Assembly (NCBI GenBank): GCA_030390025.1
Contig: CM059431.1
Span: 127,908,001 to 127,972,000 of the forward strand
Origin: Squalus acanthias
Taxonomy: Eukaryota
Direction of reading: 5' to 3'
Length of the DNA stretch: 64,000 nucleotides
Position 1 is the first letter of the stretch, and every line of letters starts with the position of its first letter. The notes under the pieces are model-generated. The model saw only the letters and a program-made list of their open reading frames with translations. It searched no databases and had not been told where the DNA came from. Positions 1,471-49,069 of the stretch are shown here, piece after piece. The position numbers were made by a program, and so were the translations under genes.

Positions 1471-1752
1471 CAACACTATGGGCCCGATTTTCCCAATGGA
1501 GGCGGGTTTCGGTTTGGGTGGGTTCCAAACCCGCCTCCACTGTGAGGTGGGAAACATTTGCGATTTTCCCCTAATTGGCCAGTTAATTTCAGAGATGTGG
1601 GTTCCCCTGGCCCAGTTAGTCTTTTGGGACTGAAACTCGCCTCTGCTGACGTCACTTATCCAGCTTCATTTAAGGGCTGCTTGCTGCCTTGGCTCATTCC
1701 ACTGGTTTTTGGTCGATGGTGCACCACCTCCAAACTTTTATCTCCTTGAAGA

Positions 1753-1945
1753 ATGGCCAACTCCAAGGCAAGGGCCTCTCCGAGGTTCTCGGATGAGGCG
1801 CTAGGTATGCTGGTTGAGGGGGCGAGAGCTAGCAGGAAGGTGCTTTTCCCGTCATCTGGGAAAAAGAAGCCTCTCAAAGAAACCAAGGCTGTGTGGGTCC
1901 AGCTGGCAATGGATATAACCTCCAGATCTGTGTGCAGATCGGGTG
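1753..1945 (+). pseudogene. Truncated Harbinger Myb/SANT-like DNA-binding gene
   Basis: MANSKARASPRFSDEALGMLVEG..VLFP..KAVWVQLA resembles exon 1 of the Myb-like gene at 18487-18723. Confidence 0.7.
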
Positions 1946-2261
1946 AATGTTTCTGTTTATTGATGAAATGCCATTCCTGTGTGAATGCATTAAAATTAGG
2001 TGATGGCAAACTGTTGGCGTGATGGCATCTGTTATTTCGGCTTAAGCAGCTCCACATTGCAGGCTCCGCGACACTTGCATGGTCAGGTTGGTGGTCAGAG
2101 TGAAAGGAAACCACAGAGTCATGTCCATTATCTATCATGTGTTAAGAATGGGCAACCTATGCATCCCTTGCATCACGGGCATCCGCTGCTGCTGGTTGAT
2201 ATGCCGCCACTCATTCCTCTTCCTCCTCCTCCTCCGCCTCCTCCTCCTCCTCCTCATCTGA

Positions 2262-5339: not shown

Positions 5340-6130
5340 CACTACCATTAATGGCTCAGCAAGCCTGGGAAGGGGCACCCAGGGCAGCACTGCAAGAGAG
5401 GTCCTCTACCCACAGGAGTCAGGAGTCCCTCCAGAAAGAACGATGTGGGACCAGATCACCGAGACCATCACTGCCAGCAGTGTCGCCCCCACAACCTGGC
5501 TCCAGTGCCCAAAGAAGCTTCATGACCTCAGACCACAGGTAAAGATCAGTGAATGCATCTTCAAAAGCCATCTCCTACCAACTGCATCACTAGCCTCACA
5601 CATTGCTCAATGCACGACTCCCCTCCACCCCCCAATCACTCACCTACCAACAATCTGCACCAATCATGAGGCACATCTCCCATTCCTAGCCTCACCTCAC
5701 CCCCGTTGGAGGAGACGGTGCAGGCCATTCTTGGCAGGGGCATGGCTGAGCCCTTGGCCAGCGGCGGGGCTGAAAGGATACAAGATGCTGGTATCCTCAT
5801 ACGTTATCCTCCTTCTCGCATGCACCTCTTGCTTTCCTGCCCTCCCCTCACCACAACTCCACCCTTGTGCCTTCCTCATTTCACACACCCAAGAAATGCA
5901 GCCTGCCCAGCCAATGGGTGACCAGGAAGAGGGAGAGGAGAATGAAGAATAACAAGAAGAAACACCGTCACTCGATTTGACACACCCAGCCACCAGCTCC
6001 TCAAGTGCCCCCCACTGAAAGTCAGCAGCCTTCCACCAGCCATGCTGCAGCCACTGGGGTAGCACTGCGAGACATCAGTAGGACAGGCAAAGGCACACAC
6101 AAGACAGTCACTAAGGGAATGCACAAGGGT
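5340..6130 (+). pseudogene. Decayed Harbinger Myb-like gene remnant
   Basis: REVLYPQ..WDQI..TWLQCPKKLHDL motif and 3' sequence resembling copies at 27370-28200 and 38400-40630. Confidence 0.65.
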
Positions 6131-20605: not shown

Positions 20606-23320
20606 CCTCTTGTAGCCACAGTATTTATGTGGATGGCCCAGTTAAGTTTCTGGTCAATGGTGACCCCCAGGATGTTGATGGTCGAGGATTTGGTGATGGT
20701 AATGTCGTTGAATGTCAAGGGGCGGAGGTTAGACTCTCGCTTGATGGAGATAGTCATTGCCTGGCACATGTGTGGCGTGAAGGTTACTTGCCACTTATCA
20801 GCCCGAGCCTGAATTTCATCCAGGTCTTGCTGCATTCGGGCATAGACTGCTTCATTATCTGAAGAGTTGTGAATGGAACTGAACACTATGCAATCATCAG
20901 CAAACATCCCCACTTCAGGGAACTACAGGCCAGTTAGCCTGACATCAGTCATCGGGAAAATGCTGGAATCCATTGTTAAGGAAGTGGTATCAGGGCACTT
21001 AGAAAATCACAACATGATTAGGCAGAGTCAACATGGTTTTATGAAAGGGAAATCGTGTTTGACAAATTTATTAGAGTTTTTTGAGGATGTAACTAGCAGG
21101 GTAGATAAAGGGGAAACAGTGGATGTAGTATATTTGGATTTCCAAAAGGCATTCGATAAGGTGCCACATAAAAAGTTATTACACAAGATTAGGGCTCACG
21201 GGGTTGGGGGTAATATAGTAGGACGGATAGAGGATTGGTTAACAAACAGAAAACAGAGAGTAGGGCTAATGGATCTTTTTCAGGTTGGCAGGCTGTAACT
21301 AGTGGGGTGCCGCAAGGATCAGTGCTGGGGCATCAATTATTTACAATCTATATTAATGACCTAGATGAAGGGACCGAGTATAATGTATCCAAGTTTGCTG
21401 ATGATACAAAGCTAGGTGGGACAGTAAGCTGTGAGGAGAACACAAAGAGGCTGCAAAGGGAAATAGATAGACTAAGTGAGTGGGCAGTAAGGTGGCAGAT
21501 GGAGTATAATGTAAAGAAATGTGAGGTAATTCACTTTGGTAGGAAGAATAGAAAAACAGAATATTTTTTAAATGGTGAGAAACTTCAAATGTTGGTGTTC
21601 AGAGAGATTTGGGTGTCCTCGTGCAAGAAACACAGAAAGCTAGCATACAGGTACAGCAAGCAATAAGGAAGGCAAATGGCACGTTGGCCTTTATTGCAAG
21701 GGGGTTTGAGTGTAAGAGTAAGGAAGTCTTGCTACAATTGTACAGGGCCTTGGTGAGACCACACCTGGAGTACTGCGCACAGTTTTGGTCTCCTTATCTA
21801 AGGAAGGATATACTTGCCTTGGAGGCGGTGCAACGAAGGTTCACTAGGTTGATTCCTGGGATGAGAGGGCTGTCCTATGATGAGAGATTGTGTAGAATGG
21901 GCCTATACTCTCTAGAGTTTAGAAGAATGAGAGGTGATCTTATTGAAACATACAAGATTCTGAAGGGGATTGACAGGGTAGATGCTGAGAGGTTGTTTCC
22001 CCTGGTTGGAGTGTCTAGAACTAGGGGGCATAGTCTCAGGATAAGGGGTCGGCCACTTAAGACTGAGATGAGGAGGAATTTCTTCACTCAGAGGGTTGTG
22101 ACTCTTTAGAATTCTCTGCCCCAGAGGGCTGTGCATGCTGAGTCTTTGAGTAGATTCAAGGCTGAGATAGATAGATTTTTGGATTCTAAGGGAATCAAGC
22201 GATATGGAGATCGGGCGGGAAATTGGAGTTGAGGTCGATGATCAGCCATGATCTTATTGAATGGTGGAGCAGGCTTGAGGGGCCGTATGGCCTACTCCTG
22301 CTCTTATTTCTTATGTTCTTATGTTCTGACCTTATGATGAAGGGAAGGTCATTGATGAAGCAGCTGAAGATGGTTGGGCCTAGGACACTGCCGTGAGAAG
22401 CTCTTGCAGCGATGTCCTAGGGCTGAGATGATTGTCCTCCACAACTATAACCATCTTCCTTTGTGCTAGGTATGACTCCAGCCAGTGGAGAATGTTCCCC
22501 CTGATTCCCATTGACTTCAATTTTAATAGGGCTCCTTAATGCAACACTCGGTCAAATGCTGCCTTGATGTCAAGGGCAGTCACTCACACTTTAGCTCTTT
22601 TGGACCAATGTTGTAATAAGGTCTGGAGCCGAGTGGTCTTGGCGGAACCCAAATGGAGCATCAGTGAGCTGGTTATTGGTGAATAAGTGTCGCTTGATAG
22701 CACTGTCAACAACACCTTCCATCACTTCACTAATGATTGAGAGTAGACTGATGGGGCGGTAATTGGCCAGATTGGATTTGTCCTGCTTTTTGTTGACAGG
22801 ACATACCTGGGCAGTTTTCCACATTGTCGGGTAGATTCCAGTGTTGTAGCTGTACTGGAGCAGCTTGGCTAGAACCATGGCTTGTTCTGGAACACAAGAC
22901 TTCAGCACAACAGCCGAGATGTTGTCAGGGCCCATAGCCTTTGCTGTATGCAGTGCGCTCAGCCGTTTCTTGATATTACGTGGAGTGAATCAAAGACTGG
23001 CTTCTGTGATGGTGGGGCCCTCGGGAGGAGGCCATGATGGATCATCTACTCGGCACCTCTGGCTGAAGATGGTTGTATATGCTTCAGCCTTGTATTTTGC
23101 ACTTGCGTGCTGAGCTTCGTCATCATTAAGGATGGGGATGTTCATGGAGCCTCCTCCTCCCGTTAGTTGTTTAGTTGTCCACCACCATTCACAACTGGAC
23201 GTGGCAGGACTGCAGAGCTTGGATCTGATTTGTTGGTTGTGGGTTCGCTTAGCTTTGTCTATAGCATGCTGCTTCTGCTAGTTAGTATGCATGTAGTCCT
23301 GTGTTGCAGTACTATGGCCA
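20606..23320 (-). mobile_element. Non-LTR retrotransposon fragment split by a CR1 insertion (pieces ~20606-20915 and ~22326-23320)
   Basis: MFADDC and NYRPISLLSIIS..FGFRQ motifs on either side; sequence joins across CCCACTTC|TGACCTTATG. Confidence 0.75.
20916..22327 (+). mobile_element. CR1 LINE 3' fragment nested in another LINE
   Basis: [42 protein letters not shown]; (TTCTTATG)n tail. Confidence 0.9.
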
Positions 23321-23322
23321 GT

Positions 23323-24276
23323 ACCTGATGGGCAGTACCCCCTCTCCCTGGCCTCACCTGATGGGCAGAACCCCCTCTCCCCAGCCTCACCTGATGGGCA
23401 GTATCCCCATTCCCCGGCCTCACCTGACGGACTGCACAGCCTCTCCCTGGCCTCACCTGATGGGCAGTACCCCCTCTCCCCGGCCTCATCTGCTGGGCAG
23501 TACCCCCATCCCTGGCCTCACCTTATGGGCAGTACCCCCTCTCCCTGGCCTCACCTGATGAGCAGTACCCCCTCTCCCTGGCCTCACCTGATGAGCAGTA
23601 CCCCCTCTCCCTGGCCTCACCTGATGGGCAGTACCCCCTCTCCCTGGCCTCACCTGATGGGCAGTACCCCCTCTCCCTGGCCTCACCTGATGGGCAGTAC
23701 CCCCTATCCCTGGCCTCACCTGATGGGCAGTACCCCCCTGCCCGGCCTCACCTGACGGGCAGTACCTCCTCTCCCCGTCCTCACCTGATGAGCAGTACCC
23801 CCTCTCCCTGGCCTCACCTGATGGGCAGTACCCCCTCTCCCTGGCCTCACCTGATGGGCAGTACCCCCTCTGCCCAGCCTCACCTGATGGGCAGTACCCC
23901 CTCTCCCCGGCCTCACCTGATGAGCAGTAACCCCTCTCCCCAGCCTCACCTGATGGGTAGTACCCCCTCTCCCTGGCCTCACCTGATGGGCAGTACCCCC
24001 TCTCCCCGGCCTCACCTGATGGGCAGTACCCCCTCTGCCCAGCCTCACCTGACAGGCAGTACCTTCTCCCTGGCCTCACCTGACGGACAGTACCTCCTCT
24101 CCCCAGCCTCACCTGACAGGCAGTACCCCCTCTGCCCGGCCTCACCTGACAGGCAGTACCCCCTCTCCCTGGCCTCACCTGACGGGCAGTACCCCCTCTC
24201 CCCAGTCTCATCTGCTGGGCAGTACCCCCATCCCTGGCCTCACCTGACGGACAGTACCCCCTCTGCCTGGCCTCAC
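23323..24276. repeat. Minisatellite, 33-bp unit CCTCACCTGATGGGCAGTACCCCCTCTCCCTGG
   Basis: About 29 visible tandem copies; explains the MGSTPSPWPHL repeat ORFs. Confidence 0.95.
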
Positions 24277-25438
24277 TGGGTGGATAATATGGCAGCGGGA
24301 ACCATTTGAGACTCATCTTTCTGCAAGTGCGTCCTGGTGTCGAGCAACCAAACCGCCACCGAGACTGCACAACTGCACAAAGGAGATGCTGACTGGCAGT
24401 GGAAACTCATGCGCACACTCCAGCAGCAGCTCGGCAGTGGCCACTGGCTGCCATCTGACTCAGATACAGGTACAGTACTTGGAACATTTTCTGTGACCCA
24501 TATCCCATGTTTTGAGGTGTAAAATACACCAAGTAAATAGGGCCTGGTATATTGAAGGCTGTCTGCAGTTTGTCATTTGCGAGTTTTGTCATTTCAGAGT
24601 GCCTCTTGTATCTTTCACAATGTAAGTTATTTTGAACTGTCATGAAGTGTTCATTTTTTACAGCTGTCCATCGTTTGGTGGTGTCTTTTTCTTCCAGGTT
24701 TCACTGCACATTGTTTGGATATTAATTGATTAATGGATATATACAAACTATCTAATGTATTCAATACATAAGTACTGAATATAAATATCTCATCACCGAT
24801 GTACATGTATTTCTCATGGGATGAAGGATGATTATTTGTTGATAGGAGCTTTCAATTGCAATAATATGAGTTCTGTACATCGGCTTTAACTCGAGTTTTA
24901 TAATACCTCTGATTTAAGAATCAAAGACCTTTAACAACCAGTTCTTAGCAGGTTCCACAAAGAATGATATTTTAATTATAACCTGATTTGCAACTGCTAT
25001 TTCTTGACATTCAGCAATGGGAAAATCGCTTATTAATTCTATAAAATGACCCATAGATGAGGAATAATCATTTTCCTCTATACGTAAAATGAAAATAAAT
25101 TGCTAAATTGTCATTAGTTTATAATGACACTTTGGTTACAAAAATCATTAACTTGACTCTCAAGGAAACAATACATTTTTATCATTGGCATTCTTCGCAT
25201 GAAGCTTTGCACTGGGAGCACTAAAGATGAACATTTATTCTCTTCCCTGTGTGAAAGGAATTACAAAGGAGAATTCAAAAATTTCTCTTTAAAGTTAACT
25301 TTATAGGAATTTAAAAGTGTTTTCAGGATCCTTGCAAGGCATTGTAGTCCCGAAGATTTTAAAATGTAAGATTTAACTGAATTTGATATACGTGCATGTT
25401 GGAATCCAGTAAAATTGTAACATATAACCAAAAGAAAT

Positions 25439-27331: not shown

Positions 27332-28513
27332 GGGCTGATTTTGCCAGGGTTGCAGTTCTTGATTATCTGAAAGGAGAAAGGCACAAGGGTAAGGTTGTGG
27401 TGAGAAGAGCGGGGGAAAGCAAGAGGTGCATGCTTACACCATCTGCAACTTGTAAATCAGAAGAGATTGTGGGATGAGGGGGAAGTGGGATGCGAGAAGA
27501 AGGATTAGATTTGAGAATACTGACATTTTCAATTGATTCAGCCCCACCACTGGCCACGGGCTCAGCAAAGTCCCTCCCAAGAATGGCCAGCACTGTCTCC
27601 TACATCGGGGTAAGGTTATGCAGACGCACCTGTGCTCCTTCATTAGCCGGTGCTGCCTCTGGTTATGTGCCACCTTATCCTGCAAGAAAGAGGGAAGTCT
27701 GTCAGTGAGTGTCATACAATCTGTTTGGGTGATATGCCTGTCTTGGTTGAATAGCTGGTAGTGTGTGCAAGCTGTGAGATGTGGGTGTGAGGCTTGTAGC
27801 AGTGGTAAGTTCGTGAGGGTGAGGCAAAACTATGAATGTGAGGTATGGGTCATGATTGATAGAGCTTGTTGGTAGGTGAGTGAAGGGAGTGTGGTGAATT
27901 GAGCAGTGTGTGAGCCTAGTCGTTCACTTGTAAGGATGAATTCACTGACCTTGATCACGCGAGTGAGGTCATTAAACTTCTTGCGGGAGTTCATACAGGC
28001 CCTCGGAACTACACTGCTGGCATTGACCATGACAGCTATCTGCTCCCATTGCATTTTCCAAATTTGCCTGGAGGGCCTCTTGGCTCCCTACGGATACAGG
28101 ACCTCTCTCCTCCTGTCCATCTCCTGCACCAAGGCCTCCAGTGCTGCATCCGAGATCCTTGAGGGACGCTCTCTCCCCTGTTGTGCCATCGGTACCTCCT
28201 CCTCCCCACACACTGTTCCCTAGCCAGTTGAATCACCTGCTGCAGCCAAAATGCACCTCCCCTTTAAGAGATGCAGACTGCCTTTAAGAAGTACAGGCTA
28301 TATTTAATTGGTGCGAGCCTTGCATGAACTTGGGCCACCTAATGAGCATGCAGCAATTCAGCAGTGCATTCAGCGCTGGGCTGCATGCTATAATCATTCT
28401 AATTAGCAGGCAGCAGAAGTTGGCACGCTACCTGCATCAATTTGAACGGGCGTGGGTTGATCCCGTATTGTGATTCCCAAGCCCGTTTTCAGGGGAAATC
28501 CAATTTTTAGCCC
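27332..28513 (-). mobile_element. Deleted Harbinger derivative with Myb-like remnant
   Basis: WEQIA..VPR..SRKKFNDLTRVIK|VS and QDKVAHN exon remnants; termini GGGCTGATTTTG / CAATTTTTAGCCC. Confidence 0.65.
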
Positions 28514-28539: not shown

Positions 28540-28690
28540 TTTTTAAATTCGTTTATGGGATCAGGGCGTCGCTGGCAATGCCAGCATTTATTGCCCATCC
28601 CTAATTGCCCTTGAGAAGGTGGTGGTGAGCCGCCTTCTTGAACCTCTGCAGTCCGTGTGGTGATTGTACTCCCACAGTGCTGTTAGGTAG
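28540..28690 (-). mobile_element. LINE 3' end that hosts the LTR element (continues at 38162-~38200)
   Basis: Joined flanks give GTGCTGTTAGGTAGGGAGTTCCAGG, matching uninterrupted copies at ~14365 and ~63175. Confidence 0.85.
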
Positions 28691-30397
28691 TGTAAGGGAT
28701 TTCCCCTGACCCTGCGTGTCTCGTAGCCTGTGAGATTCACGCGGCTCTGTGCAGCCTGTATGTCAGTGCGGGTCTAGGCCTGGTTGCCTGTTCTGGTCTC
28801 CAGCCAGTCTGGGAACACTAGACACACCTGTGAGTGGTTCGAATCACTCTCCCTTACGGTTCTAGACACTGGACTTAGATGCGAGAGCAGTAATGGAGAT
28901 AAAACTCATGTAGACTTGGTTTGAATGGTACGAAATGGAAAATCTTTATTGCATGATACTTAAAATTATGAAATACATGTCATAAGCACAGATTAATGAC
29001 AGTACAATCTTACAAACGGTTATATAGTCGATCTTAGGGAAACGAGGAACGAACGGCACAACGTAAATAGGGGCACACATTACAAATATCCTTAATCTTT
29101 AAACCCTCCCCTATCAATATCTATCCTAAACTAGCTTCGTAGGATCTCGAGACTCATGCTCACCACTCGTGATAACTCGGAGAAATTCCGAATAGCTGAT
29201 CGGATGTTTTTCACCGCAGCACCCACGTGTCGGTCAGGAGATCTCCTGGTCCCACTTGTTTACTTGCTTCTGCTGCTCCGGCTAGTAGGCTGGACCGTCT
29301 GCTGTGATGAAGACCTCTGTTGGTGGGTTTCACAGTTTAGTCTTGGAGCACCGTTGTCAATATCATTGATACGATGTGTTTTCCACGTTCCAACCTCCTT
29401 AGAAGTTTAAAGAGGAAAACTTCCTGGCGAGAAAACTTGGCTGATCGACCTACAGGCGCGGTCGGGATTTACTGACCGTGGCGATGGATATGGTCTTCTT
29501 CTCTTCTCCTCTCATCTCATCTCATCTCATCTCATCTCGGGCCTTTGGTTCCGCTGCCAGTTACCAACATAGGTCTTCGTTACGCGACACGAGGTAGATC
29601 CGTACGGATCAGAAAGTTCAACAGTCTTTTCAGAAGAGGCAACAGGCACGCAGAAACCCAACTACGAGTACACAGGAGCAGCCACGAGGTTACGAATCGA
29701 CCGGATAAAACACAGGAGCAAGCGAGCGAACGCAGGAGCACGAACAAGAGCACGAGGCCAGAGGCAAGAGACAAGAGAGCGAGTGGACGGTTTGGGGCCT
29801 GCAATTATAGTGCAAAAATCTTCCGTTTCCCGCCCAACTATAATGTCCATTCTTTTGTTTAGGGTTTGGCGCCCAAATGTCTTGTATGGGTGATCTCCGT
29901 CCTTAATGGGTTTCGGGGCTACTCATGAATGTTTGAGTACCTGTTAATATTTCTCCCATTGTTAAATCGGTCGGTGTTCTCCCTGGAGGGGTTTGGGGCT
30001 TCCAAGTGTCCTGTATACGGCTCTCTCATCGTAGAGTCGTTGGGAGTTTACATATTAATGTCCTTTGGATGGGCCCTTGATTACTCGGTACAATGGCTTT
30101 CCTTTGTACCTGGGAGACCGATTCCAGTATCTATGTTTATACTGCAAACCCATAATGTCTCGTGTATTATCTTCACTGTGCTGAATCGTTATCGATCTTG
30201 CACAAATGTTTAATGGAACGCCATCTTGTCTGCCTGTTGAAAAGTCTAGAATGTTCTGTCACGAGGTGCGGCGGCCATTTTACAGGCTGCTTGTGTCCAA
30301 TTTAAACCTGCCAGCATTCTGCTGAAATAAAAGCTGTTTGAACGAACCTTTGTGTTTTCTCCTTATTAATCAAATCGCGATAATTGCGAATTCTACA
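28691..30397 (-). repeat. 3' LTR
   Basis: Direct repeat of 36443-38161 (offset 7752 up to the indel); AATAAA on minus strand at 28945-28950; lacks a 12-bp segment present in the 5' LTR. Confidence 0.97.
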
Positions 30398-30410
30398 GTC
30401 CCTCCTGTTG
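30398..30410 (-). promoter_or_regulatory. Polypurine tract
   Basis: Minus strand reads AACAGGAGGGAC immediately before TGTAG of the 3' LTR. Confidence 0.7.
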
Positions 30411-30823
30411 ATGCGAATAACTCCGCTTATCGTATCAAAAATCACAGTGGTGAGCAATCTTATCTCGATTTCACTCCGAATCCAGTAAATTAATCCCATA
30501 AATTTTAACTTAACTAGGGTCTCTGTGTCGTCCTTATTTCCCAAGAAAATCACATTTTATATCACCGTAGGCATCATTTGCCCTTAAACTTACACCACTT
30601 GTTTTCCTTCCCGGCGTAACCAGGCCGATACCTCACGCATCACCTGTATATTTGTCTTTTATTCAGGGAAAGGAAAAAAAAACAAAACCCAAAACCAAAC
30701 AATCAACACCATCACCAAAATAAACAAATCCCAACTCTTAAACATGTCGAGTTTCCAACGTATTTACAATGAGTACAAACTTCCGCGGCGCACGCGGCGA
30801 GCGGGAGTGACGCCATTTTCCGA

Positions 30824-33175
30824 TTACACGGTGCTCTCATCGTGCACGCGCACGTAACGTTCTCGCCACTCTCCCGTGTTTTCATGCTTGGTGAGGCGCT
30901 TGTCTCTTTTACAATGTATGACCAATAGGTACACTACAATAAACACTTGACAGACGACTAAAATGTGGGAGGCTATTCTGATCCATGAAGGCACTTCAAT
31001 ATTGGTGAACAGATTCCACCACGGTGGAACCACTATGTCCAAAATGTCTGTTCCTATCTCGACAGTTTTCTGCTCTAATGTATAAAAATGTTTCTGTGAT
31101 ACCGCGACGGCTTTCAGAAGTTTGGTTAAATGCTCAGGGAGAGGGGGAATGAGGTATCCAAAATGCGCGACAAATCGCTGCAAGTCGGTGAAATTCTCTT
31201 TTACTGTGAGGTGAACAGTGGATGGTTCAGGGATTGGGATGATTCGCTGTTGTGCTACTTGAACTTCAGCCCTGGGTTTAAAACAGAAACTGCTGTCACT
31301 CACCGGACACCGGCTACGGTTTCCATGCTGGTAGTGTTGCGCTGCAGTGGTAACACAATATGTTCCACCCCCGATGTATGCTACCTGCGGAGGCACATGA
31401 TCTTGTGCCATTGCCTCCATGGTGCAATTCATGGACTTGGCGCCAGCCGTTCTGAACCCGCACTGTGGTGTTAAAAAGGCATTCAAGTGCTGGGGGCACA
31501 GTATTATGTGTGCTCCCCTGCCACGACAACCAGAGAGATCTGTACCTGTCATCGTTTGCTCCCAGCGGATGACGTAAGGTGGAACCGCTGCATAACGAAT
31601 GTGGGCTCCCCCCTGAATGACACCAATGTTCTCTACCCGATACACCGGGGCGGGCTTTGCTGTGTTGCCCAAAACCGGCATGCGTAATACTATTCCCATA
31701 ATAGTATGGTTTGAACGTCCGCAGTCCACGGGGACTGGGTAAGCTTCTGAAGCTAGCCTGAGCTGGCACGGACTTAATGCGTTCTGAAAAGGGTGGAGCG
31801 CCCGTAGGTGTTTGTTACTTATCCAGGACGGAACCAAACCTTGTTTTAAATCCTCCAAATTACTGCGGCCCTCGCCCAGTAACCACGCCCCGTAAAGCAC
31901 GCACACCTCGTTCTGCGCAGCTTGATCGGATGCATTCCGATCTTCCCTGATCAGGGCATTTACCGTACGCGCATGTTTCTCCAGCTCTGCTATAATTTCC
32001 TTTAAATGGAGAGTCATGGCTTGGTCCTCGTGTAGACCTGACCCTACCACTTTATTCTCATCTGTTAGAATGTCTTTTAACTGTGTTTTTAAACCATTAA
32101 TCTGGGTCTGCAGCTCCACACTGTCTAGAGCGTTGACCACAGATGTCCCTGTGTTAAACGCAGTGAACGCATCGTTCACCAAACCCCTTCTTTGCCTCCC
32201 TACTTGATCCAAAACTTCCTGCGGTGCGGTGTACAAGCTTGTCTTATCAATTTCTGCAAAATCAAACTCGTAAAATTGTCTGAACATCTTGGTCAACAGG
32301 ACCTGATACAACTGTTCCGTCTTTTTGGGGCACCACTCTGGTAACCGTACCTCAGTGAGATTTAAAATCACCGAGGCCACCGCGTAATGTACCCCCTGAA
32401 ATAGTATCTGGTCTGTGGGGACCAGTACCAAACCGTTTCCGGGTCCCTTACTAGTTTTAGGGCACCCTTCTTCCTCAGCTAGAACCACCGGAATCGTGGG
32501 CGGGGCTTTGCGTGGGCGCGTAATGAGTTCAGTGGCATTTACTGGGATCGGGGAGAATGGGGCTCCGCACCCCCTGGTGCTCGCATCCCACCTCATCCCC
32601 TGTCCGTTATCCTGCCACTGATTAATAAAAAATATGGAGATGCCTTTGGGGCAAACGTACTTTGACCCCCACATACATACATAAATCCCCTCATCCGGTT
32701 CCCACCATTTGTCCCAACAGACTTTCACTTGTCCGTCTGTCCCCGTAATTGTCCGATGGGTATTATTACCCAGTCGTTCCCACTCGACCGAAGAGTTTCT
32801 CATAGTTTTGCTCAGCTTTCGCAGCTACCACCATCGGCTCAATGGGACATCCCCACTACAGGTCAAACAAATCCGTTTGCCGACGGTGACGCTGATCCTG
32901 GGTGCGATGATCCTTACTTTGGGGCACATTAAAGAAGTCTCTTTGTAGGCGAACCCCGATGTGCTGGAATACTCCGTTGAGTTCGTTCCCAGCCATCCTG
33001 GCCACCTTCCCTTGTGGAAATAGGTGCTGGTCCCCTCTGCCTTCCGTCTTCCGGTCCCATCCACCGCGATGGGGGCCGTGTCCCCGGAACATCCAAACAC
33101 CACGACATCCTTGGTGTGGCCTCGATAGGCCAATCCACATCCGATTGCCACGAGCAATACTAGAATTCGTTCCAT
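30824..33175 (-). CDS. env: Envelope glycoprotein, 783 codons with one in-frame TAG (32827-32825): signal peptide, Ig-like domain, class I F-like fusogen, TM
   Basis: MERILVLLVAIGCGLA signal peptide in AGGATGG context; ORFs 32825-33358 and 30824-32803 are the same frame; furin site RQRR (32197-32186) then GLVNDAFTAFNTGTSVVNAL, heptad repeat, Cys-rich region and TM IASHILVVCQVFIVVYLLVI. Confidence 0.88.
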
Positions 33176-33187
33176 CCTTCCTTGGTT

Positions 33188-33212
33188 CCTGTGATCAGAT
33201 AGAATGAGGTAG
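33188..33212 (-). promoter_or_regulatory. Candidate env splice acceptor
   Basis: CTACCTCATTCTATCTGATCACAG|G; exon would start 13 nt before the env ATG. Confidence 0.55.
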
Positions 33213-33438
33213 CCAGCCTCGCAAAAGTCTCTGGCTTTTGTGAAGGGTGAGCGGGTCCCCTGACCTCGCCTCACGTAAACTTCAACGTTTGCTGAATAGA
33301 CTTCCTCTAAACCTAGCCTTAAAACTCCCATCATTTTATCGTTTTCTGTTAAAAACACTACAAACTTAACCTTGAACTATAAACTTAAAACTTAAAACTA
33401 ATAACTTTACAGTGCCGCCCGTTCTCAGGGCGGCCCCT

Positions 33439-34626
33439 TTAAATTCTGAGAAGGCTGCTGCGAGCTCTTCCCGACGGTGGGAGGGCACTGACCCTTCCCT
33501 CTGATCTGCCGCAGCCTGTTGCTGCGCTGACCCTTTCCTCTGATCTGCCGCAGCCTGTTGCTGCGCTGACCCTTTCCTCTGATCTGCCGCAGCCTGTTAC
33601 TGCTGCGATGTGGCCGGTCTGTACCCGGGTTATCTTAACCTGAAGTCTACGCCTTGGGGCAGTCTGGGGACATGACCACATCCTCCTGGGCTGGGGTTCT
33701 CTACTTGACCTACGGGGAGTTGCTATGGGCGGGGGTTCCGTGACGGACGGACCGGGTTCCGAGACCTCCAACGGGATGACCTGGGGTTCCATCACAGTCG
33801 CCGGCTCCGCCTCCGCTGACTCCGCCTCCCTAACCTCGGGGCTGGCAGTTCGTGGCTCCGCCCTGCTCGGCCCAGCAGGCGGCCCTTCACTCGTGATCTC
33901 TGCCTCCCCTGAGGACTGGACGTTCAAAGCGGGCGGCCACATCTCTGGGAGCCACACCGGTACTCTCTGTGCTCCTATAGCGGCTGGCCCTGCCTCCTCT
34001 AGCTCCTCCCTCCTGTCCTCGGGACCTGCAGCTTGCGTGTCCACCCTGTGTGGATCTCTACCTACAGCCCCCATTCCCTCCAGACCGTTCCTCAGGAACC
34101 ACCCGTCATCATCACTATGCTCATCTGCACTATCCTCATCTGACCAGGGTACCCTGAGTTCTTCCTCATCTAACCCCCAATTCCAGAAAAACGCTGCATG
34201 ATCGTCCGGGATGTCCCTTCCCCTGATACAAGCTGCTATGCCTGCCTGTGTGCCTTGTGGTCCTACCTGGGGCTGTGCTTTCCCATTGGCGGGATTTACC
34301 CCTGTAGTTTTCCCCTGCGCACCCGGCTGGTACAGTCTGCATTGGTTTACATCCTCATACTCCCGGCTTTTGGCTGCCCTGTAGGCTGCTTTTATCTCTC
34401 TAAGCTGCGCTTCTAGCCTGAGCACGTCTAACTTTCCCATTGCTCGGGCGTTCTCCTCCCGCAGGGCCTGCTCTCTAAGCTGCCCTTCCAGCCCATCTAT
34501 TTTCCCTATTAAGCGGGCGTTCTCCTCCCGCAAGGCCTGCTCTCTTAACCTGGCCTCCTCTCCGCAGACCCCCTCCTGTGCGTGTCTTTTAAAAGGACAC
34601 AGGTAGGCAGGCTGCGTGGGCTCTAG
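33439..34626 (-). CDS. Gag-readthrough extension (395 aa), unknown coiled-coil plus acidic/Pro-rich protein in the position normally held by pol
   Basis: Open in the gag frame from the codon after the gag TGA (CTA GAG CCC ACG..; LEPTQPAYLCPFKRHAQEGVCGEEARLREQALREENAR..) to TAA at 33441-33439; no ATG before the Met in RAMGK. Confidence 0.75.
   Translation of the reverse strand, partial: LEPTQPAYLCPFKRHAQEGVCGEEARLREQALREENARLIGKIDGLEGQLREQALREENARAMGKLDVLRLEAQLREIKAAYRAAKSREYEDVNQCRLYQPGAQGKTTGVNPANGKAQPQVGPQGTQAGIAACIRGRDIPDDHAAFFWNWGLDEEELRVPWSDEDSADEHSDDDGWFLRNGLEGMGAVGRDPHRVDTQAAGPEDRREELEEAGPAAIGAQRVPVWLPEMWPPALNVQSSGEAEITSEGPPAGPSRAEPRTASPEVREAESAEAEPATVMEPQVIPLEVSEPGPSVTEPPPIATPRRSSREPQPRRMWSCPQTAPRRRLQVKITRVQTGHIAAVTGCGRSEERVSAATGCGRSEERVSAATGCGRSEGRVSALPPSGRARSSLLRI
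33488..33604. repeat. 39-bp coding tandem repeat (3 copies; AATGCGRSEERVS)
   Basis: CTGACCCTTTCCTCTGATCTGCCGCAGCCTGTTGCTGCG x3, frame-preserving. Confidence 0.9.
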
Positions 34627-36438
34627 TCATTGGGTACTATTAGACGGTCCTGCGGCACCTACGGGGCCGGTTGCGACCGCCACCTGTCCACGCGCATTCA
34701 AGACCAGCTTGCGCATGGCTCCTAACACTGCTTCGAGGTCGTCGGGAGGGGTGGGTGCCTTGGCTTCCTTAGCCGGGACCGGCGCCTGGGCTCGCACCGC
34801 GGGATTTTTATCCTTGGAATCCTTCCAAGGGTTCCTGCAATGCTTGCGCCAGTGCCCTGTCTTCCCACACCCGTAACAAGCATTACTTGCCTGTGGGGCG
34901 CGATTTCCCTCCTGATGCCACTCCTTTTGAGCCGGGGCTGCGGGTCGTACCTCATGTACTCTTCCCTTAAAGGGACGTGTCGTCATACCCCTTATATTAC
35001 GATAACCTAACGTGAGTCGATTCAAGACCGACTCTTCCGTAAGGTTGAGGTCATTGGGATCGAACCAGGCTTTTGCCTGCTCTCTAACGGCTGGTAAACT
35101 GTTGGCTATTATGCACCTAAGCCAATGAATTAAAGCGGCGCCTTCCACATCTTCGCGCTCGGGCGCACCTAGACAGCTGCGCTCATATACTGGCCACAGC
35201 CTGTCGGCAAAAACCTTCGGGGGTTCTCCCTCCATCTGCACTGTCTGTCCCACTCTAGCAAACGGACCTCCGTCGTTCGCCCCCACTACTTCTAGGACCT
35301 CATTCTTTAATTCCTCATAACTCTTGTTTCCCCTCTTGCTCTCGCCTGAGAGACACTGAAGGACCGAGCTGTCTAATGAGAACAGCAGCATTTTTGCTGT
35401 CTCCCCATCATCGCAGCCGTTAATGGCTGCGGCTTGCTCAACTTCTCTGAAATGTACGGAAGGGTCGTCTATCTCGGTCAGCTTCCGTACGTGATTTATC
35501 ATAGCTCTCAGCTGATGTGAACTGTGAGGCAACACCAGCTGTCCGAGGAGATCCCCCGGTTCTTCCCCACCGTTTCTGCTTGGGCCCCTTTTAATACCCG
35601 TTACTGGATACAACGATCCCTTTTCTTCTTCCTTTTCAATGGGCTTTTTCGTTTCTTCCATTGCTTCCTCCCTAACCCAGGTTTCTGAATAGCTGGGTGG
35701 CGCGGAGGGCGCAGTGGCTACTACTTCTTCTGCTTTACTTGGTGGGGATTTTCTAAATCTCTCATTTACTAGCGGCTGGTGCGCCGACGGATTGATAAGG
35801 CACACCATGCCGTTCGCATTATTCACGGCCTTTTTGAGGCTCTCTATCTCCCTTTGGCAGGCGCTATGGTCGGCTCCCTGAAACTTATCCTCAAGGGCCA
35901 ACTTATACGCCGACCTAACCCCCATTAAGCTCTCTTCTTGAGTTCTTATCTGGGCAGCTTGGCGGTTGCATCTTTCCTTTAACCTACTCTCATTCAATTT
36001 TGCTTCAGTGACCTGGCACTCGAGATACTCTATCCTTGTTTTAAGGTGACTGGAGACTTCCTGGCTTTCCTGGTGTAACTCATTTAAATTCTTAATGAGC
36101 ACCTCCCCTCCAGAAACCTTCTCCTCCATTTCTCCCTCTAAATGGCTGATTCGAGCTGTTAGCGCTGTAATGGTCTGGTTTGAAATCTGAACCTGCCTTT
36201 TGTAGCACATAAGCCAGACTGCTTTCTCAACTGCCTTTTTATGTTCCTTACTATCTGTCCACCTTTCAGCTGCCTCTAGTGGGCTCTTATCCGCTAACAA
36301 TTCACTTATCCACTTCTTAGTTAGATTAACCTTTCCAAACACATAATCCGCTATCTTTTCCTGCATAACATTTCGTACAGTCATTCCAAAATCTAACACA
36401 CTACCCTCTCGCTGCCAGTGTCCTGCCGCGGTCGCCAT
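34627..36438 (-). CDS. gag: Gag polyprotein, 603 aa
   Basis: Starts AAAATGG (MATAAGHW); long N-terminal coiled coil, PSAPPSY late motifs (35709-35689), MHR-like QMEGEPPKVFADRL, zinc knuckle CYGCGKTGHWRKHC (34878-34837). Confidence 0.92.
   Translation of the reverse strand: MATAAGHWQREGSVLDFGMTVRNVMQEKIADYVFGKVNLTKKWISELLADKSPLEAAERWTDSKEHKKAVEKAVWLMCYKRQVQISNQTITALTARISHLEGEMEEKVSGGEVLIKNLNELHQESQEVSSHLKTRIEYLECQVTEAKLNESRLKERCNRQAAQIRTQEESLMGVRSAYKLALEDKFQGADHSACQREIESLKKAVNNANGMVCLINPSAHQPLVNERFRKSPPSKAEEVVATAPSAPPSYSETWVREEAMEETKKPIEKEEEKGSLYPVTGIKRGPSRNGGEEPGDLLGQLVLPHSSHQLRAMINHVRKLTEIDDPSVHFREVEQAAAINGCDDGETAKMLLFSLDSSVLQCLSGESKRGNKSYEELKNEVLEVVGANDGGPFARVGQTVQMEGEPPKVFADRLWPVYERSCLGAPEREDVEGAALIHWLRCIIANSLPAVREQAKAWFDPNDLNLTEESVLNRLTLGYRNIRGMTTRPFKGRVHEVRPAAPAQKEWHQEGNRAPQASNACYGCGKTGHWRKHCRNPWKDSKDKNPAVRAQAPVPAKEAKAPTPPDDLEAVLGAMRKLVLNARGQVAVATGPVGAAGPSNSTQ
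36420..36437 (-). promoter_or_regulatory. Primer-binding site, tRNA-Arg(UCG)-type
   Basis: TGGCGACCGCGGCAGGAC lies 5 nt after the 5' LTR and is complementary to GTCCTGCCGCGGTCG-CCA, which I recall as the 3' end of a vertebrate tRNA-Arg(TCG). Confidence 0.85.
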
Positions 36439-36442
36439 TTTC

Positions 36443-38161
36443 TGTAAGGGATTTCCCCTGACCCTGCGTGTCTCGTAGCCTGTGAGATTCACGCGGCTCT
36501 GTGCAGCCTGTATGTCAGTGCGGGTCTAGGCCTGGTTGCCTGTTCTGGTCTCCAGCCAGTCTGGGAACACTAGACACACCTGTGAGTGGTTCGAATCACT
36601 CTCCCTTACGGTTCTAGACACTGGACTTAGATGCGAGAGCAGTAATGGAGATAAAACTCATGTAGACTTGGTTTGAATGGTACGAAATGGAAAATCTTTA
36701 TTGCATGATACTTAAAATTATGAAATACATGTCATAAGCACAGATTAATGACAGTACAATCTTACAAACGGTTATATAGTCGATCTTAGGGAAACGAGGA
36801 ACGAACGGCACAACGTAAATAGGGGCACACATTACAAATATCCTTAATCTTTAAACCCTCCCCTATCAATATCTATCCTAAACTAGCTTCGTAGGATCTC
36901 GAGACTCATGCTCACCACTCGTGATAACTCGGAGAAATTCCGAATAGCTGATCGGATGTTTTTCACCGCAGCACCCACGTGTCGGTCAGGAGATCTCCTG
37001 GTCCCACTTGTTTACTTGCTTCTGCTGCTCCGGCTAGTAGGCTGGACCGTCTGCTGTGATGAAGACCTCTGTTGGTGGGTTTCACAGTTTAGTCTTGGAG
37101 CACCGTTGTCAATATCATTGATACGATGTGTTTTCCACGTTCCAACCTCCTTAGAAGTTTAAAGAGGAAAACTTCCTGGCGAGAAAACTTGGCTGATCGA
37201 CCTACAGGCGCGGTCGGGATTTACTGACCGTGGCGATGGATATGGTCTTCTTCTCTTCTCCTCTCATCTCATCTCATCTCATCTCATCTCGGGCCTTTGG
37301 TTCCGCTGCCAGTTACCAACATAGGTCTTCGTTACGCGACACGAGGTAGATCCGTACGGATCAGAAAGTTCAACAGTCTTTTCAGAAGAGGCAACAGGCA
37401 CGCAGAAACCCAACTACGAGTACACAGGAGCAGCCACGAGGTTACGAATCGACCGGATAAAACACAGGAGCAAGCGAGCGAACGCAGGAGCACGAACAAG
37501 AGCACGAGGCCAGAGGCAAGAGACAAGAGAGCGAGTGGACGGTTTGGGGCCTGCAATTATAGTGCAAAAATCTTCCGTTTCCCGCCCAACTATAATGTCC
37601 ATTCTTTTGTTTAGGGTTTGGCGCCCAAATGTCTTGTATGGGTGATCTCCGTCCTTAATGGGTTTCGGGGCTACTCATGAATGTTTGAGTACCTGTTAAT
37701 ATTTCTCCCATTGTTAAATCGGTCGGTGTTCTCCCTGGAGGGGTTTGGGGCTTCCAAGTGTCCTGTATAACTACCTGCTAACGGCTCTCTCATCGTAGAG
37801 TCGTTGGGAGTTTACATATTAATGTCCTTTGGATGGGCCCTTGATTACTCGGTACAATGGCTTTCCTTTGTACCTGGGAGACCGATTCCAGTATCTATGT
37901 TTATACTGCAAACCCATAATGTCTCGTGTATTATCTTCACTGTGCTGAATCGTTATCGATCTTGCACAAATGTTTAATGGAACGCCATCTTGTCTGCCTG
38001 TTGAAAAGTCTAGAATGTTCTGTCACGAGGTGCGGCGGCCATTTTACAGGCTGCTTGTGTCCAATTTAAACCTGCCAGCATTCTGCTGAAATAAAAGCTG
38101 TTTGAACGAACCTTTGTGTTTTCTCCTTATTAATCAAATCGCGATAATTGCGAATTCTACA
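36443..38161 (-). repeat. 5' LTR
   Basis: Minus strand TGTAGAATTC...CCCTTACA; copy of 28691-30397 plus 12 bp near 37769-37780; (TCTCA)n microsatellite inside. Confidence 0.97.
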
Positions 38162-38399
38162 GTAGGGAGTTCCAGGATTTTGACCCAGCGAGTGGCGATG
38201 AACTGGAATTTGCTGCCGATGGAAGTGGTGGAAGCGGAGACAGTTTTCAAAGGGAGACTGGATAGGCACTTGAAGGAAATCAACTTGCTGGGCTACGGGG
38301 ATAGAGCGGGGGAATGGGACTGACTGGATTGCTCTACCGAGAGCCGGCATGGACCCGATGGGCCGAACGGCCCCTTCTGTGCCGTTTTGACTCTATGAC

Positions 38400-41300
38400 A
38401 CGGGAGAGAACATGCTCCAGGTTTTTGAGACGCTGCACTGGAGGTCTTGGTGGAGGAGGTGGCTAGTAGGAGAGATGTCCTGTACCGCAGGGGGCCAGGA
38501 GGCCCTCCAGACACATGCTCAGAAGGCAGTGGGAACAGAAAGCCGTGGAGGTCAATGCCAGGAATCTAACCACGAGGACCTGGATGCAGTGCCGCAAGAA
38601 GTTCAATGAACTCTCACGGGTGGTCAAGGTCCATGAATGCATCTTCATCAACTGCATCACTAGTCTCAGCCACTGCTCAATTCACCACACTCCCTTCACT
38701 CACCTACGAACAATCTCTATCAATCAGATCTCATACCTAACATTCATAACTTCACCTCACCCTCACACATGTAGCACTGCTGCAAGCCTCACACCCACAT
38801 TTCACAGCCTGCACACACTGCCAGCTATTCCACCATGACAACCACATCACCCAAACAGGTTGTACGACACTCACTGACAAAGTTCCTTCTCCCTTGCAGG
38901 ACAAGGTGGCGCACAACCTGAGGCAGCAGGGGCTACCCATAGGGAGACCGGCACACCTGCATGTCCTAACCCCCATGGAGGAGATGATGCTGGCCTTTAT
39001 TGGAATGGCAATTGCTGAGGCTGTGGCCAGCAGCTGGGCTGAATCAATTGAAGATGCCGGTATCCTCATACCTAATCCTCCTTCTCACATCCCACTTCCT
39101 CCTCATTCCACAATCAATTCTGAGGGGGCTTGATCGGGTGGATGCGGGGAGGATGTTTCCACTGATGGGTGAGACTAGAACTAGGGGGCATAATCTTAGA
39201 ATAAGGGGCTGCCGTTTCAAAACTGAGATGAGGAGAAACTTCTTCACTCAGAGGGTAGTAAATCTATGGAATTTGCTACCTCAGAGAGCTGTGGAAGCTG
39301 CGACATTAAATAAATTTAAAACGGAGATAGACAGTTTCCTAGCTGATAAGGGAATTAAGGGTTATGGGGAGCGGGCAGGGAAGTGGACGTGAGTCTAGGT
39401 TCGGATCACCCATGATCCTATTGAATGGCGGAGCAGGCCCGAGGGGCCATATGGCCCACTCCTGCTCCTACTTCTTATGTTCTTATGTTATGTTCAAGCT
39501 GCAGATGGTGTAAGCATGCACCTCTTACTCTCCCCTCACCACAGCCTTACCCTTGTGCCTTTCTCCTTTCAGATACCCAAGAAGTGCTTCGTGGCAATGG
39601 AACAAGAAAACAATGATGATGACGACACGCTGTCAGTCGATTTCACACACGCAGCCACCAGCTCAGATACTGACACTGCGTGTAATTTAGAGGATAGTAT
39701 AGAGGCAGGATCTGCACATAGTGAGACACCGGGCACGAGTGGCCTACAGCCAGGGCAGGGGCCACGGATAGCGCAGGTGCCAGTTCGCACACGTGAGGTC
39801 GCACATGGGTTCCGCTACAGTGGTCTCAGATGAGAACTTCAATGGGGCTGCCTGCAGAAGAAGGCAGATGGGTATGCACAACAAAATGCTTGGTGCATTG
39901 GGAGGCCTGCCAGAAAGCCTTCGTTCAATGTCAAGGATCATGATGGAGTCCAGCACCAACTTGGCACAGGGCTTTGCGAAGAGCTTGGAGCCCATCGTTA
40001 CCAGCGTGGAAGTAGTGGTCCACTCCATTCGCACACTTGTGGAGCCAACCATGATGTAACGTCTGATGGCCAATGTCTCAGCTTCCATTGCAACACAAGC
40101 AGCAGCCAGCCATCATCTGGGTACTGCAGTGAAAGCTTAGACTGCTGTCATGCAGGGTCAGCTTGCTGCCATGCAAGTCCAGACTGCTACCATCATGGCT
40201 GTATTCAAAGGGACTTGCAGGGTGACATAGCAGTCCAGCAATCTGTCCTCCAATAGATTACTAGGATTGCTGAGGCACTACCCCGGGGGAGTGACAATGG
40301 CTCCATGGCGCACGAACCTGAGGTCCTCTCTCAGGAAGGCAGCATTCGTCCTCCCACTCCTGCCACTCCCCCAGTGCCCTTGCTGTAGCCTGTCAGCCAG
40401 TCATCCCAGATTGCTGCCGCCTATGCCGAGATGGTGCAGTCCGCAGCCGAGCCGTCCAGGCCCAGAGCTGCTCGAGGTCGTCCTCCAAGTCCATCTGCCG
40501 TCTCCCCCAGTGAAAGTCAGTGGCCTGCTACCAGCCATGCTGTAGCCACTGGGGTAGCACTGCGTAGGAACATTAGGACAGGCAAAGTCACATGGAAGAC
40601 AGGCACTAAGGGGATGCACAAGGTTGATTAGTTGACGTTTGTATGCAATATTGCATGGTTTCACTTATAATTTTGGGTTGGACTGTTTATTTTGTGTTGG
40701 CTTTTATTTTTGCATTGTGGCCAAGCGGATGCTGTGATGGTCAGTGACAGAGGGACGGTAAGGAGTGTGGGACTGTTGGTGAAAGAGGAATTGGGGTTGC
40801 AGTTACCAATATCGCACTCAAATTAGTTTTTCACAGACAGCCCGGCCAGAAAGGGGCTGTCTTGCTTGCCTCCTCTCTTCCTCTTCCTCCTCTTCCTCCT
40901 GATGCTTCTGCTCCTCAGTTGATTACAGCATAGCTGTTGGGAAGGGCTGTCCACTTATGATGGCGAGGTTGTACAGCATGCAGCAGACCACCACGAATCT
41001 TGACACCCACTGTGCCGAGTACTGAAGGGTTCCTCCAGGCAGCGGAAGTGTTGTTTCAGCATGCCAATGGTCTCCTCTATCACATTTCGTGTGGCAGCAT
41101 GGCACTCATTGTATGCATGTTGTGCACGTGTGCCATGTCCTTAGCGGAGAGTCCTTGTCGTCCAGTAGCCACCTTTGCTTTGCCATAGTGGCTCAAATGC
41201 AGCCTGCACAGTGGACTGCCGCAGAATGAAGACATCATGACTGCTGCCAGGATACCAGGCATTGATATGCATGATTCACTGCCTTTGGTTGCACACCAGC

Positions 41301-49062: not shown

Positions 49063-49069
49063 GGGGGAG

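Follow-up and report, generated by a model that had tools for sequence, protein, structure and literature searches.

A predicted readthrough stop (UGA-CUAG) ahead of an apparently enzyme-less Pol frame in a pol-deleted endogenous retrovirus of Squalus acanthias

Introduction

In gamma- and epsilonretroviruses, the expression of pro-pol depends on readthrough of the stop codon at the end of gag (PMC13517186). The retroviral readthrough contexts given in that 2026 review are UAG-GGA and UAG-GGC, together with UGA followed by AGA in the swim bladder sarcoma virus of salmon (SSSV), by CGA in a zebrafish endogenous retrovirus (ERV), and by AGU in a frog ERV; the CUAG context is absent from its section 4.1.2. 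This study investigated a provirus of Squalus acanthias in which gag ends in TGA-CTAG and is followed by 395 in-frame sense codons, hereafter the ΔPol frame. The provirus lies on the minus strand of a 64,000-nucleotide (nt) stretch of assembly GCA_030390025.1 (contig CM059431.1, positions 127,908,001-127,972,000), which is called the window and in whose coordinates all positions are given. A reading made from the sequence alone (the sequence-only reading) had proposed that this element reuses a recoding switch of the Gag-Pol type for packaging a few copies of a different cargo protein per virion.

The heptanucleotide UGA-CUAG is shared with the vertebrate genes of the type II UGA-CUA class (OPRL1, OPRK1, AQP4, MAPK10, and MDH1) and with alphaviruses. 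Loughran et al. (2014; PMC4132726) reported efficient readthrough for four mammalian UGA-CUAG genes in HEK-293T reporters, in which OPRL1 reached approximately 31% and MDH1 exhibited the lowest value, approximately 3.5%. According to the same report, CUAG was required, UGA was the best stop codon for CUAG, the motif was conserved throughout vertebrates, and UGA-CUAG was enough to give reporters a readthrough of several per cent (PMC4132726). These values bear out the sequence-only reading in its description of UGA-CUAG as a characterized readthrough context. The present case differs from these genes and viruses in that the motif stands at a retroviral gag-pol junction, and the reporter efficiencies were obtained with other flanking sequences and in other cells. 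As a retroviral gag-pol signal, UGA-CUAG appears, in the literature searched here, not to have been described before.

Defective retroviruses provide the other comparison. ETn/MusD and pol-deleted HERV-H are non-autonomous ERV sub-families. Like helper-dependent ERVs of this kind, the window provirus has intact long terminal repeats (LTRs), a primer-binding site, and a polypurine tract, lacks reverse transcriptase (RT) and integrase (IN), has autonomous relatives in the genome, and belongs to a group with a high copy number; unlike them, it retains gag and env genes under purifying selection and an open pol frame with a Gag-like helical insert. Acutely transforming retroviruses form Gag-X fusions, in which pol is likewise lost and a foreign segment lies in frame downstream of gag. 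The window element differs from these in that its gag stop is kept, a fusion would require readthrough, and the foreign part comprises 82 codons and looks retroviral. A further replication-defective, helper-dependent retrovirus, Moloney murine sarcoma virus, is named in PMC13517186.

As a whole, the evidence is best explained by a helper-dependent ERV sub-family carrying a gutted Pol behind an inherited leaky stop, an explanation that we hold with fair confidence. The window element would be a non-autonomous member of a large ERV family of the gamma/epsilon type, which would make its Gag-Pro-Pol through an in-frame UGA followed by CUAG. In one ancestral event, 3617 nt of pol, from protease to integrase, would have been removed and 245 nt inserted with the frame intact. 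A few per cent of ribosomes would still pass the stop, and the resulting 999-residue Gag-ΔPol fusion would be an inherited, tolerated by-product, with the element spreading by the RT and integrase of autonomous relatives. Two traits are less usual, namely UGA-CUAG as the gag-pol signal of a family and a deletion that keeps the frame and is filled by a Gag-like helix.

The gag stop and its counterpart in autonomous relatives

At the end of gag, the minus strand reads ..AGT ACC CAA TGA CTA GAG CCC ACG CAG CCT GCC TAC CTG TGT CCT.., with the leaky-stop motif TGA-CTAG at 34623-34629 (TGA at 34629-34627, CTAG at 34626-34623) and CAA directly before the TGA. Behind the TGA, 395 sense codons run to 33442 and end in a TAA at 33441-33439, and the predicted fusion comprises 603 + 1 + 395 = 999 residues. 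The stop-to-stop list of open reading frames (ORFs) accordingly contains 33439-34626 (395 amino acids, aa) directly behind 34627-36525. The stop context, the 395 codons, and the 999-residue fusion predicted in the sequence-only reading were all confirmed by reading the strand and its ORFs. Because the two other frames of the minus strand contain no ORF of at least 200 aa across the downstream stretch in this listing, and because homology to the pol frame of autonomous relatives covers 313 of the 395 codons, the ΔPol frame is not a chance opening.

The gag gene (34630-36438, minus strand; 603 codons) encodes an N-terminal coiled coil and a CCHC zinc knuckle (residues 520-535), the latter approximately 70 residues before the stop. 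In a scan of 1.84 billion representative proteins, two gag homologues (619 aa, E 7e-157; 628 aa, E 4e-93) aligned up to query residues 601 and 593 of the 603 and stopped within a few residues of the alignment end. A word-indexed search of 5.8 billion proteins with gag gave no match among longer proteins of 1057-3015 aa, which is weak evidence. In the region 36420-36438, the first ATG of the gag frame (36438) overlaps the primer-binding site, and the public Gag homologue P0002 likewise begins MATAAG. Since the conserved Gag sequence starts approximately 25 residues past this ATG, the true gag start may be an internal methionine.

The same genome contains autonomous relatives with open pol frames. 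In one of them, L059, the gag frame (169-975), the stop (976-978), and the pol frame (979-5466) share one reading frame with a single stop between gag and pro-pol; the junction reads ..ACC CAA TGA CTA GAG CCC.. and is followed by 1496 residues in frame. Pfam domains of this Pol are RVP (residues 17-114), RVT_1, RNase_H, Integrase_H2C2, rve, and SH3 (1181-1223), and the approximately 270 residues behind SH3 contained no Pfam domain. Its best sequence matches in the PDB were Ty3, the RTs of xenotropic murine leukemia virus-related virus (XMRV) and murine leukemia virus (MLV), and foamy virus protease-RT (PR-RT) and IN; among solved retroviral structures, the RT of L059 is nearest to XMRV/MLV.

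A closer autonomous element was recognized by the same gag and env N-termini lying approximately 6.9 kb apart, compared with 3.6 kb in the pol-less form, and was sampled at the two breakpoints only (L061 and L062). The L061 junction reads ..CCA TGA CTA GAA.. and continues as LEPAQPVYLCPLSYDAW..DTGAS, in the same gag/pro-pol arrangement as that of L059. The window, L059, and L061 thus all carry the type II leaky-stop arrangement, a UGA directly followed by CUAG. The DTGAS motif lies approximately 37 residues behind the stop in both L059 and L061, and the stop has the position typical of readthrough, between the nucleocapsid (NC) zinc knuckle and the protease active site. A sequence-only expectation, that an autonomous relative might carry the same junction leading into protease, was thereby realized in two loci, both in frame.

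The arrangement corresponds to that of the gamma- and epsilonretroviruses that use readthrough (Moloney murine leukemia virus, MoMLV; walleye dermal sarcoma virus, WDSV; SSSV; the zebrafish ERV, ZFERV; and a frog ERV with UGA), in which gag and pro-pol likewise share one frame with a single stop. In these viruses, the stop likewise occupies the interval between the NC zinc knuckle and the protease DTGA, as it does in the autonomous relatives. The differences are that the context is UGA-CUAG rather than one of those listed in the retroviral contexts of PMC13517186 and that the frame behind the stop in the window contains no enzymes. Since the Pol of the autonomous relatives is obtainable only through the in-frame UGA, the site must be read through in them. 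The recoding site is genuine and inherited.

The 1.84-billion-protein scan with the 999-residue read-through translation yielded 25 matches, 24 of which were best in gag. P0018 was the sole database protein among them that matched the downstream frame (E 9e-17), and this protein starts with an integrase C-terminus. When the genome was searched with this integrase C-terminus, 150 of 4296 candidates were scored, and many of these lay in open frames of 1400-1500 aa.

Composition of the ΔPol frame

The window and L059 are 80% identical in DNA through gag to 34595, have no alignment from 34594 to 34350, and are 70% identical from 34349 to the end of the frame, where window 34349-33442 aligns with L059 4628-5419. 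The closer autonomous element exhibited the same limits at higher identity: L061 is 91.7% identical to the window up to a limit at exactly 34595, and L062 (..RRTKWFHINQCKLYQPGAQGKTTGV..) is 97.5% identical from exactly 34349 on, its tail continuing as ..RRTKWFHINQCKLYQPGAQG... Contigs from two public sequencing runs diverged from the window at the same two breakpoints, into protease-like and integrase-like sequence, and a contig of run X11 departed from the window sequence at 34595.

Because homology ends at 34595 and resumes at 34349, the 395-codon frame reads as pol in which 3617 nt have been replaced by 245 nt. The net loss of 3372 nt equals 3 x 1124 and leaves the frame intact, and the breakpoints were identical in all 39 distinct aligned copies. 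From the stop onward, the frame consists of the start of the pro leader (LEPTQPAYLCP, 11 codons; 34595-34626), the 245-nt insert (82 codons; 34350-34594) in place of PR-RT-RNaseH-IN, and the Pol C-terminal tail that lies behind the integrase SH3 in autonomous elements (33442-34349; approximately 302 codons, predicted to be disordered), and it is closed by the TAA at 33439-33441. Within the tail, a 39-nt (13-codon) tandem repeat is present in three units at 33484-33600; its motif ATGCG[RG]S occurs once in L059 and in P0018. As judged from the alignments, the frame represents pol after in-frame loss of its enzymes and is not a new cargo gene. The part of the sequence-only reading that concerned a Gag-Pol-style recoding site therefore stands, because the in-frame site is common to the gag-pol junctions of autonomous relatives, whereas its "non-Pol" cargo has to be replaced by an enzyme-less, in-frame Pol remnant behind the leaky stop of the family itself: 313 codons are pol, and the remaining 82 resemble Gag coiled coils rather than a host gene.

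AlphaFold predicted one long helix at residues 20-97 of the ΔPol frame (pLDDT 85-97), with a pLDDT below 50 for the remainder. The insert contains an internal duplication of approximately 90 nt (78% identity). It exhibited no homology to the pol of L059 or L061, and a BLASTN comparison with the rest of the window returned nothing below E 0.8. BLASTP against the gag of the element itself gave a match at E 1.6 only, which indicates that the insert was not copied from this gag. The insert peptide matched the coiled coils of other Gag proteins (P0025, 46% over 39 aa, E 9e-5; P0001, E 1e-3 to 1e-4), with weaker matches to the same coiled-coil stretch in the Gag proteins P0022 and P0008, and hhalign against a 13-sequence Gag alignment found the same stretch (probability 87%, E 4.5e-6). 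Coiled coils are prone to spurious similarity. On these matches, we consider it somewhat better than an even chance that the insert is a Gag-derived coiled coil of a diverged relative.

Two other candidates for the helical insert were rejected. A Pfam match to Rab11-FIP3 scored 16.9 bits against a cut-off of 31.9 and was regarded as coiled-coil noise, and the scores of 0.80-0.82 with cellular coiled-coil clusters in a protein atlas (recognition 1175) were at chance level. When the 395-aa frame was compared with 5.8 billion proteins in a word-indexed search covering lengths of 217-692 aa, no match was obtained. In the genome, queries that included the insert recovered nothing but the thousands of copies of this element.

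Copies of the frame in the genome

Searches of the 3.7-Gb genome with queries specific to ΔPol yielded 1810-3060 first-look candidates, which are not verified copies (2136 with the junction DNA, 3060 with the 1.2-kb frame, and 1810 with its first 60 residues). TGA-CTAG was present in 33 of 33 anchor-bearing loci; these were the loci, among 38, that held an exact 18-nt anchor, two of them being the window itself, and the five loci without the anchor were left out. Among the copies taken at 5.7 kb, TGA was kept in 19 of 19, a 20th long copy (L056) having been left out as it lacked the anchor. In 150 copies found by the first 60 residues, the stop was lost in one (L060, with AGA), in which the frame is fused to gag; the frame measured 360-410 aa in 136 copies and 73-348 aa in 13. 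Among the 39 distinct aligned copies, 34 were open (369-434 aa) and five were frameshifted, all by 1-nt insertions or deletions (indels). Indels that keep the frame comprised a 12-nt insertion in six of the 39 and an 18-nt deletion in one, and changes by units of the 39-nt repeat (+39, +117, -39, and -78 nt), which are in frame by construction, occurred in 35. For the sequence-only expectation of conservation across copies, the result was divided: TGA-CTAG was kept in all but one of the copies read and the frame was open in approximately 90%, whereas constraint on the amino acids was weak.

In runs X1 and X3, whose labels denote two other coded organisms, contigs extend across both the stop of gag and the 5' breakpoint and show 3-4 differences. 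The pol-less form thus also occurs beyond the individual that was assembled. No gag-env splice junction was seen in the contigs of four runs, for which the library type is not stated.

Some copies lie approximately 7.72-7.76 kb apart on the same strand, a spacing equal to one LTR plus one internal region, as in G000 C3311:2264435 and 2272186. The same spacing of approximately 7.75 kb was observed at C7:117261147 and 117268904 and at C1:143657790, 143665513, and 143673231. These look like tandem arrays with common LTRs (LTR-internal-LTR-internal).

Selection on gag, ΔPol, and env

Substitutions were classed against the codons of the window copy and corrected for the observed transition bias, and the samples of copies were those picked by similarity to the window. 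The results revealed clear purifying selection on gag and env. In gag, the ratio of non-synonymous to synonymous substitution (omega) was 0.36 in 19 copies (p 1e-7 for the synonymous excess). In env, it was 0.14 in 17 of the 19 copies (p 3e-25; 96 synonymous against 29 non-synonymous variants), L044 and L054 being left out because their env aligned poorly; env was the most strongly conserved gene among the copies. The N-terminal part of env, in 19 copies, gave an omega of 0.79, which was not significant.

The ΔPol frame gave an omega of 0.76 in the 19 copies (p 0.11) and was under significantly weaker constraint than gag (Fisher p 0.009) or env (p 3e-10). In the 39 copies, omega was 0.63 for shared variants (p 0.035) and 0.72 for singletons (p 0.11), and shared variants read in the two other frames gave 2.1 and 0.88. 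In the comparison of the window with L059, the dN/dS of the tail was 0.63, compared with 0.77 and 1.00 in the other two frames and with 0.32 for the C-terminal part of gag. The constraint on ΔPol is about equal to that seen when this tail is compared between the autonomous lineage and the non-autonomous one. The frame is held open somewhat better than by chance, and its residues are barely constrained.

Purifying selection on gag and env in a pol-less derivative points to spread as helper-dependent particles, not simple decay, for a form whose candidate copies number well above a thousand. Mobilization in trans is suggested by the high copy number and by the identical LTRs of the window provirus.

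Predicted readthrough in the pol-less element

The pol-less element has kept the motif along with the 32 nt that follow the stop, and readthrough at a few per cent is therefore still expected. We have considerable confidence that the UGA in the window is read through, to give the predicted Gag-ΔPol fusion.

RNA folding predicted an interrupted hairpin of 17 base pairs that begins 10 nt after the UGA (34563-34616, minus strand), its 5' arm derived from the pro leader and its 3' arm from the insert. In a 133-nt fold, its z score was -3.2, and none of 200 shuffled sequences was as stable; in a 75-nt fold, it reached -27.8 kcal/mol (z -2.1), with 9 of 300 shuffles as stable. L061, the closest autonomous relative, exhibited a hairpin of equal size and position made of protease sequence (-27.3 kcal/mol, z -2.1, 7 of 300 shuffles), and the hairpin starts 9-10 nt behind the UGA in both. 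No such hairpin was found in L059 (z 0, 129 of 300 shuffles as stable). The 39 copies contained only three changes in the hairpin, all singletons, and were too alike for covariation; 20 of these copies had been picked by similarity in the hairpin region itself. A role of this predicted hairpin as a readthrough stimulator is suggestive only. No pseudoknot of the MoMLV type turned up in this folding, in which no search was aimed at pseudoknots.

The element is a natural minimal construct, consisting of the stop, 32 nt of native context, and foreign sequence, for asking what retroviral UGA-CUAG leakiness needs. In the family as a whole, which is large, apparently still active, and of a cartilaginous-fish type, the best-characterized cellular readthrough motif of vertebrates serves as the gag-pol signal.

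Weighing of the explanations

Several points weigh against an inherited leaky stop that would yield a tolerated fusion. Translation, readthrough, and packaging of the fusion are putative. Gammaretroviral readthrough needs a pseudoknot downstream of the stop, and because just 32 nt behind the stop are retained here, any longer stimulator formerly located in pro is lost. A frameshift at 34096 is common to three of the 39 copies, on different contigs, which suggests that copies with a broken frame still spread. Truncated frames were found in 13 of 150 copies for ΔPol and 35 of 150 for env, and clearly truncated ones in 9 of 150 for gag; per codon, breaks in the ΔPol frame are roughly as frequent as in env and about double those in gag, in samples that differ in make-up, those of gag and env including autonomous elements. 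The copies are young, differing by approximately 1-4% from the window copy, and the approximately 90% of open frames are therefore close to the expectation for neutral decay. As the tail is 97.5% identical to the autonomous tail, recombination with helpers could bring in tail variants that had already been filtered and could thus imitate constraint. Other points speak against the fusion as a mere by-product: only one nonsense variant was present in the ΔPol frame among the shared and singleton variants of the 39 copies, compared with approximately 5.5 expected, the shared variants lean synonymous, and both the deletion and the insert are frame-keeping.

The last group of points is what would be expected if the fusion were a selected functional product, in which the Pol tail would be a separable module delivered by the virion, a few copies of it in each particle, with the Gag-like coiled coil aiding co-assembly with Gag and the recoding switch kept for this packaging. 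This explanation is the sequence-only reading with its cargo identified anew. The 82-codon insert is open and helical and matches the same coiled-coil stretch of several Gag homologues, shared indels are all multiples of three bar one, and the tail constraint is 0.63 both within the pol-less family and against the autonomous lineage. The omega of the 19 copies, nonsignificant and weaker than those of gag and env, argues against such selection, as does the frameshifted variant in three copies. Most in-frame indels are changes of the 39-nt repeat unit, recombination with the pol tails of helpers could account for the synonymous excess, no fold is predicted past the one helix, and no protein family was found by Pfam, the word-indexed search, or the protein atlas. 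We regard a selected product as unlikely, and equally so its fullest version, a satellite retrovirus that would load an accessory Pol tail into particles, a few copies each, through UGA-CUAG, a Gag coiled-coil handle, and a rebuilt hairpin.

Somewhat less probable still is efficient termination at the UGA of the pol-less element, with the stimulator in pro deleted and the frame an untranslated relic that is open through youth. The mere 32 nt of ancestral downstream sequence would fit this explanation, as would the small divergence of the copies and a truncated share near that of env. The shortage of nonsense variants is unfavorable to it, as is the hairpin predicted to begin 10 nt after the UGA, which matches that of the closest autonomous relative in size; moreover, CUAG directly after UGA was key in reporters, which gave readthrough of at least approximately 3.5% (PMC4132726).

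The openness of the frame with little amino-acid constraint could also have RNA-level reasons: readthrough ribosomes would clear the approximately 1.2 kb downstream and shield the genomic RNA from nonsense-mediated decay, or the stretch would hold cis signals for env splicing or export. Retroviral readthrough is known as a protection from decay. The conserved, copy-number-variable 39-nt repeat at the end of the tail lies just upstream of env and could be a cis-acting RNA element, and a candidate splice acceptor (..GTTTTTAACAG|A) is located approximately 90 nt behind the ΔPol stop, just before the env ATG. This candidate lies outside the frame, however, and the tail is thus not needed for it; we consider an RNA-level reason improbable.

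Capture of a host gene, as in Gag-onc fusions, is a very improbable source of the downstream frame. In its favor are the absence of pol, the in-frame joining of 245 nt of foreign sequence downstream of gag, and the cellular coiled-coil proteins among the protein-atlas neighbors, which are at chance level. Against it, 313 of 395 codons are pol, the protein scan gave only an integrase-tail protein and the word-indexed search nothing, and the sole significant similarities of the insert are to retroviral Gag coiled coils. A cellular-gene origin was accordingly rejected.

Structure of the provirus, env, and surroundings

Self-comparison of the window and reading of the ends defined a 9.5-kb provirus with LTRs, a 4-bp target duplication, a primer-binding site, gag, and env. 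The direct repeats 28691-30399 and 36443-38163 aligned over 1721 columns with no mismatch and one 12-nt gap; LTR ends were set at TG..CA, the final 2 nt of the BLAST repeat match being a chance extension. The 5' LTR is at 36443-38161 and the 3' LTR at 28691-30397, both on the minus strand, and they are flanked by the target-site duplication GTAG (38162-38165, with a second copy at 28687-28690). The primer-binding site (36420-36437, minus strand) comprises 18 nt from TGG, 5 nt past the LTR end, and is presumably complementary to the 3' end of tRNA-Arg. The polypurine tract (..AGGAGGGA..; 30400-30412, minus strand) adjoins the 3' LTR.

The ORF list gave four frames between the LTRs: gag, the 395-codon frame, a 169-codon frame, and a 659-codon env-like frame. 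None of the four had a Pfam match to protease, RT, RNase H, or integrase, and the provirus has no pol enzymes of its own. It exhibits the layout of a non-autonomous provirus, with LTR and primer-binding site at one end, polypurine tract and LTR at the other, and the target-site duplication. The absence of LTR substitutions over approximately 1.7 kb, together with the GTAG duplication, indicates a very recent insertion, and the ERV family may therefore still be active.

In the window copy, env is split by a private TAG (32825-32827, minus strand), at which 19 of 19 other copies have TGG. The 169-aa ORF is therefore the N-terminus of env, cut off in this copy, with a signal-peptide-like sequence (MERILVLLVAIGCGLA; 32828-33334, minus strand). 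Eight of the 19 copies have an env frame of 836 codons, counted from the ATG at 33334 to the stop; in a ninth copy, the fetched sequence ends with the frame still open. In the rest of env (30827-32803, minus strand), an RQRR cleavage-like site precedes a hydrophobic stretch; a heptad region and a C-terminal membrane anchor are also present, the membrane-anchored part measuring approximately 450 aa. The env protein had no Pfam match and no sequence match in the PDB.

Repeats outside the provirus were also observed in the window. Two satellite arrays are located at 23240-24295 and 48992-50000, with periods of 33 nt and 24 nt. The sequences 27457-28181 and 38398-39123 match in inverted orientation (79%). 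A short interspersed repeat of approximately 370 nt occurs in two copies (21957-22328 and 39117-39492; 76-89% identity), one of which adjoins the provirus.

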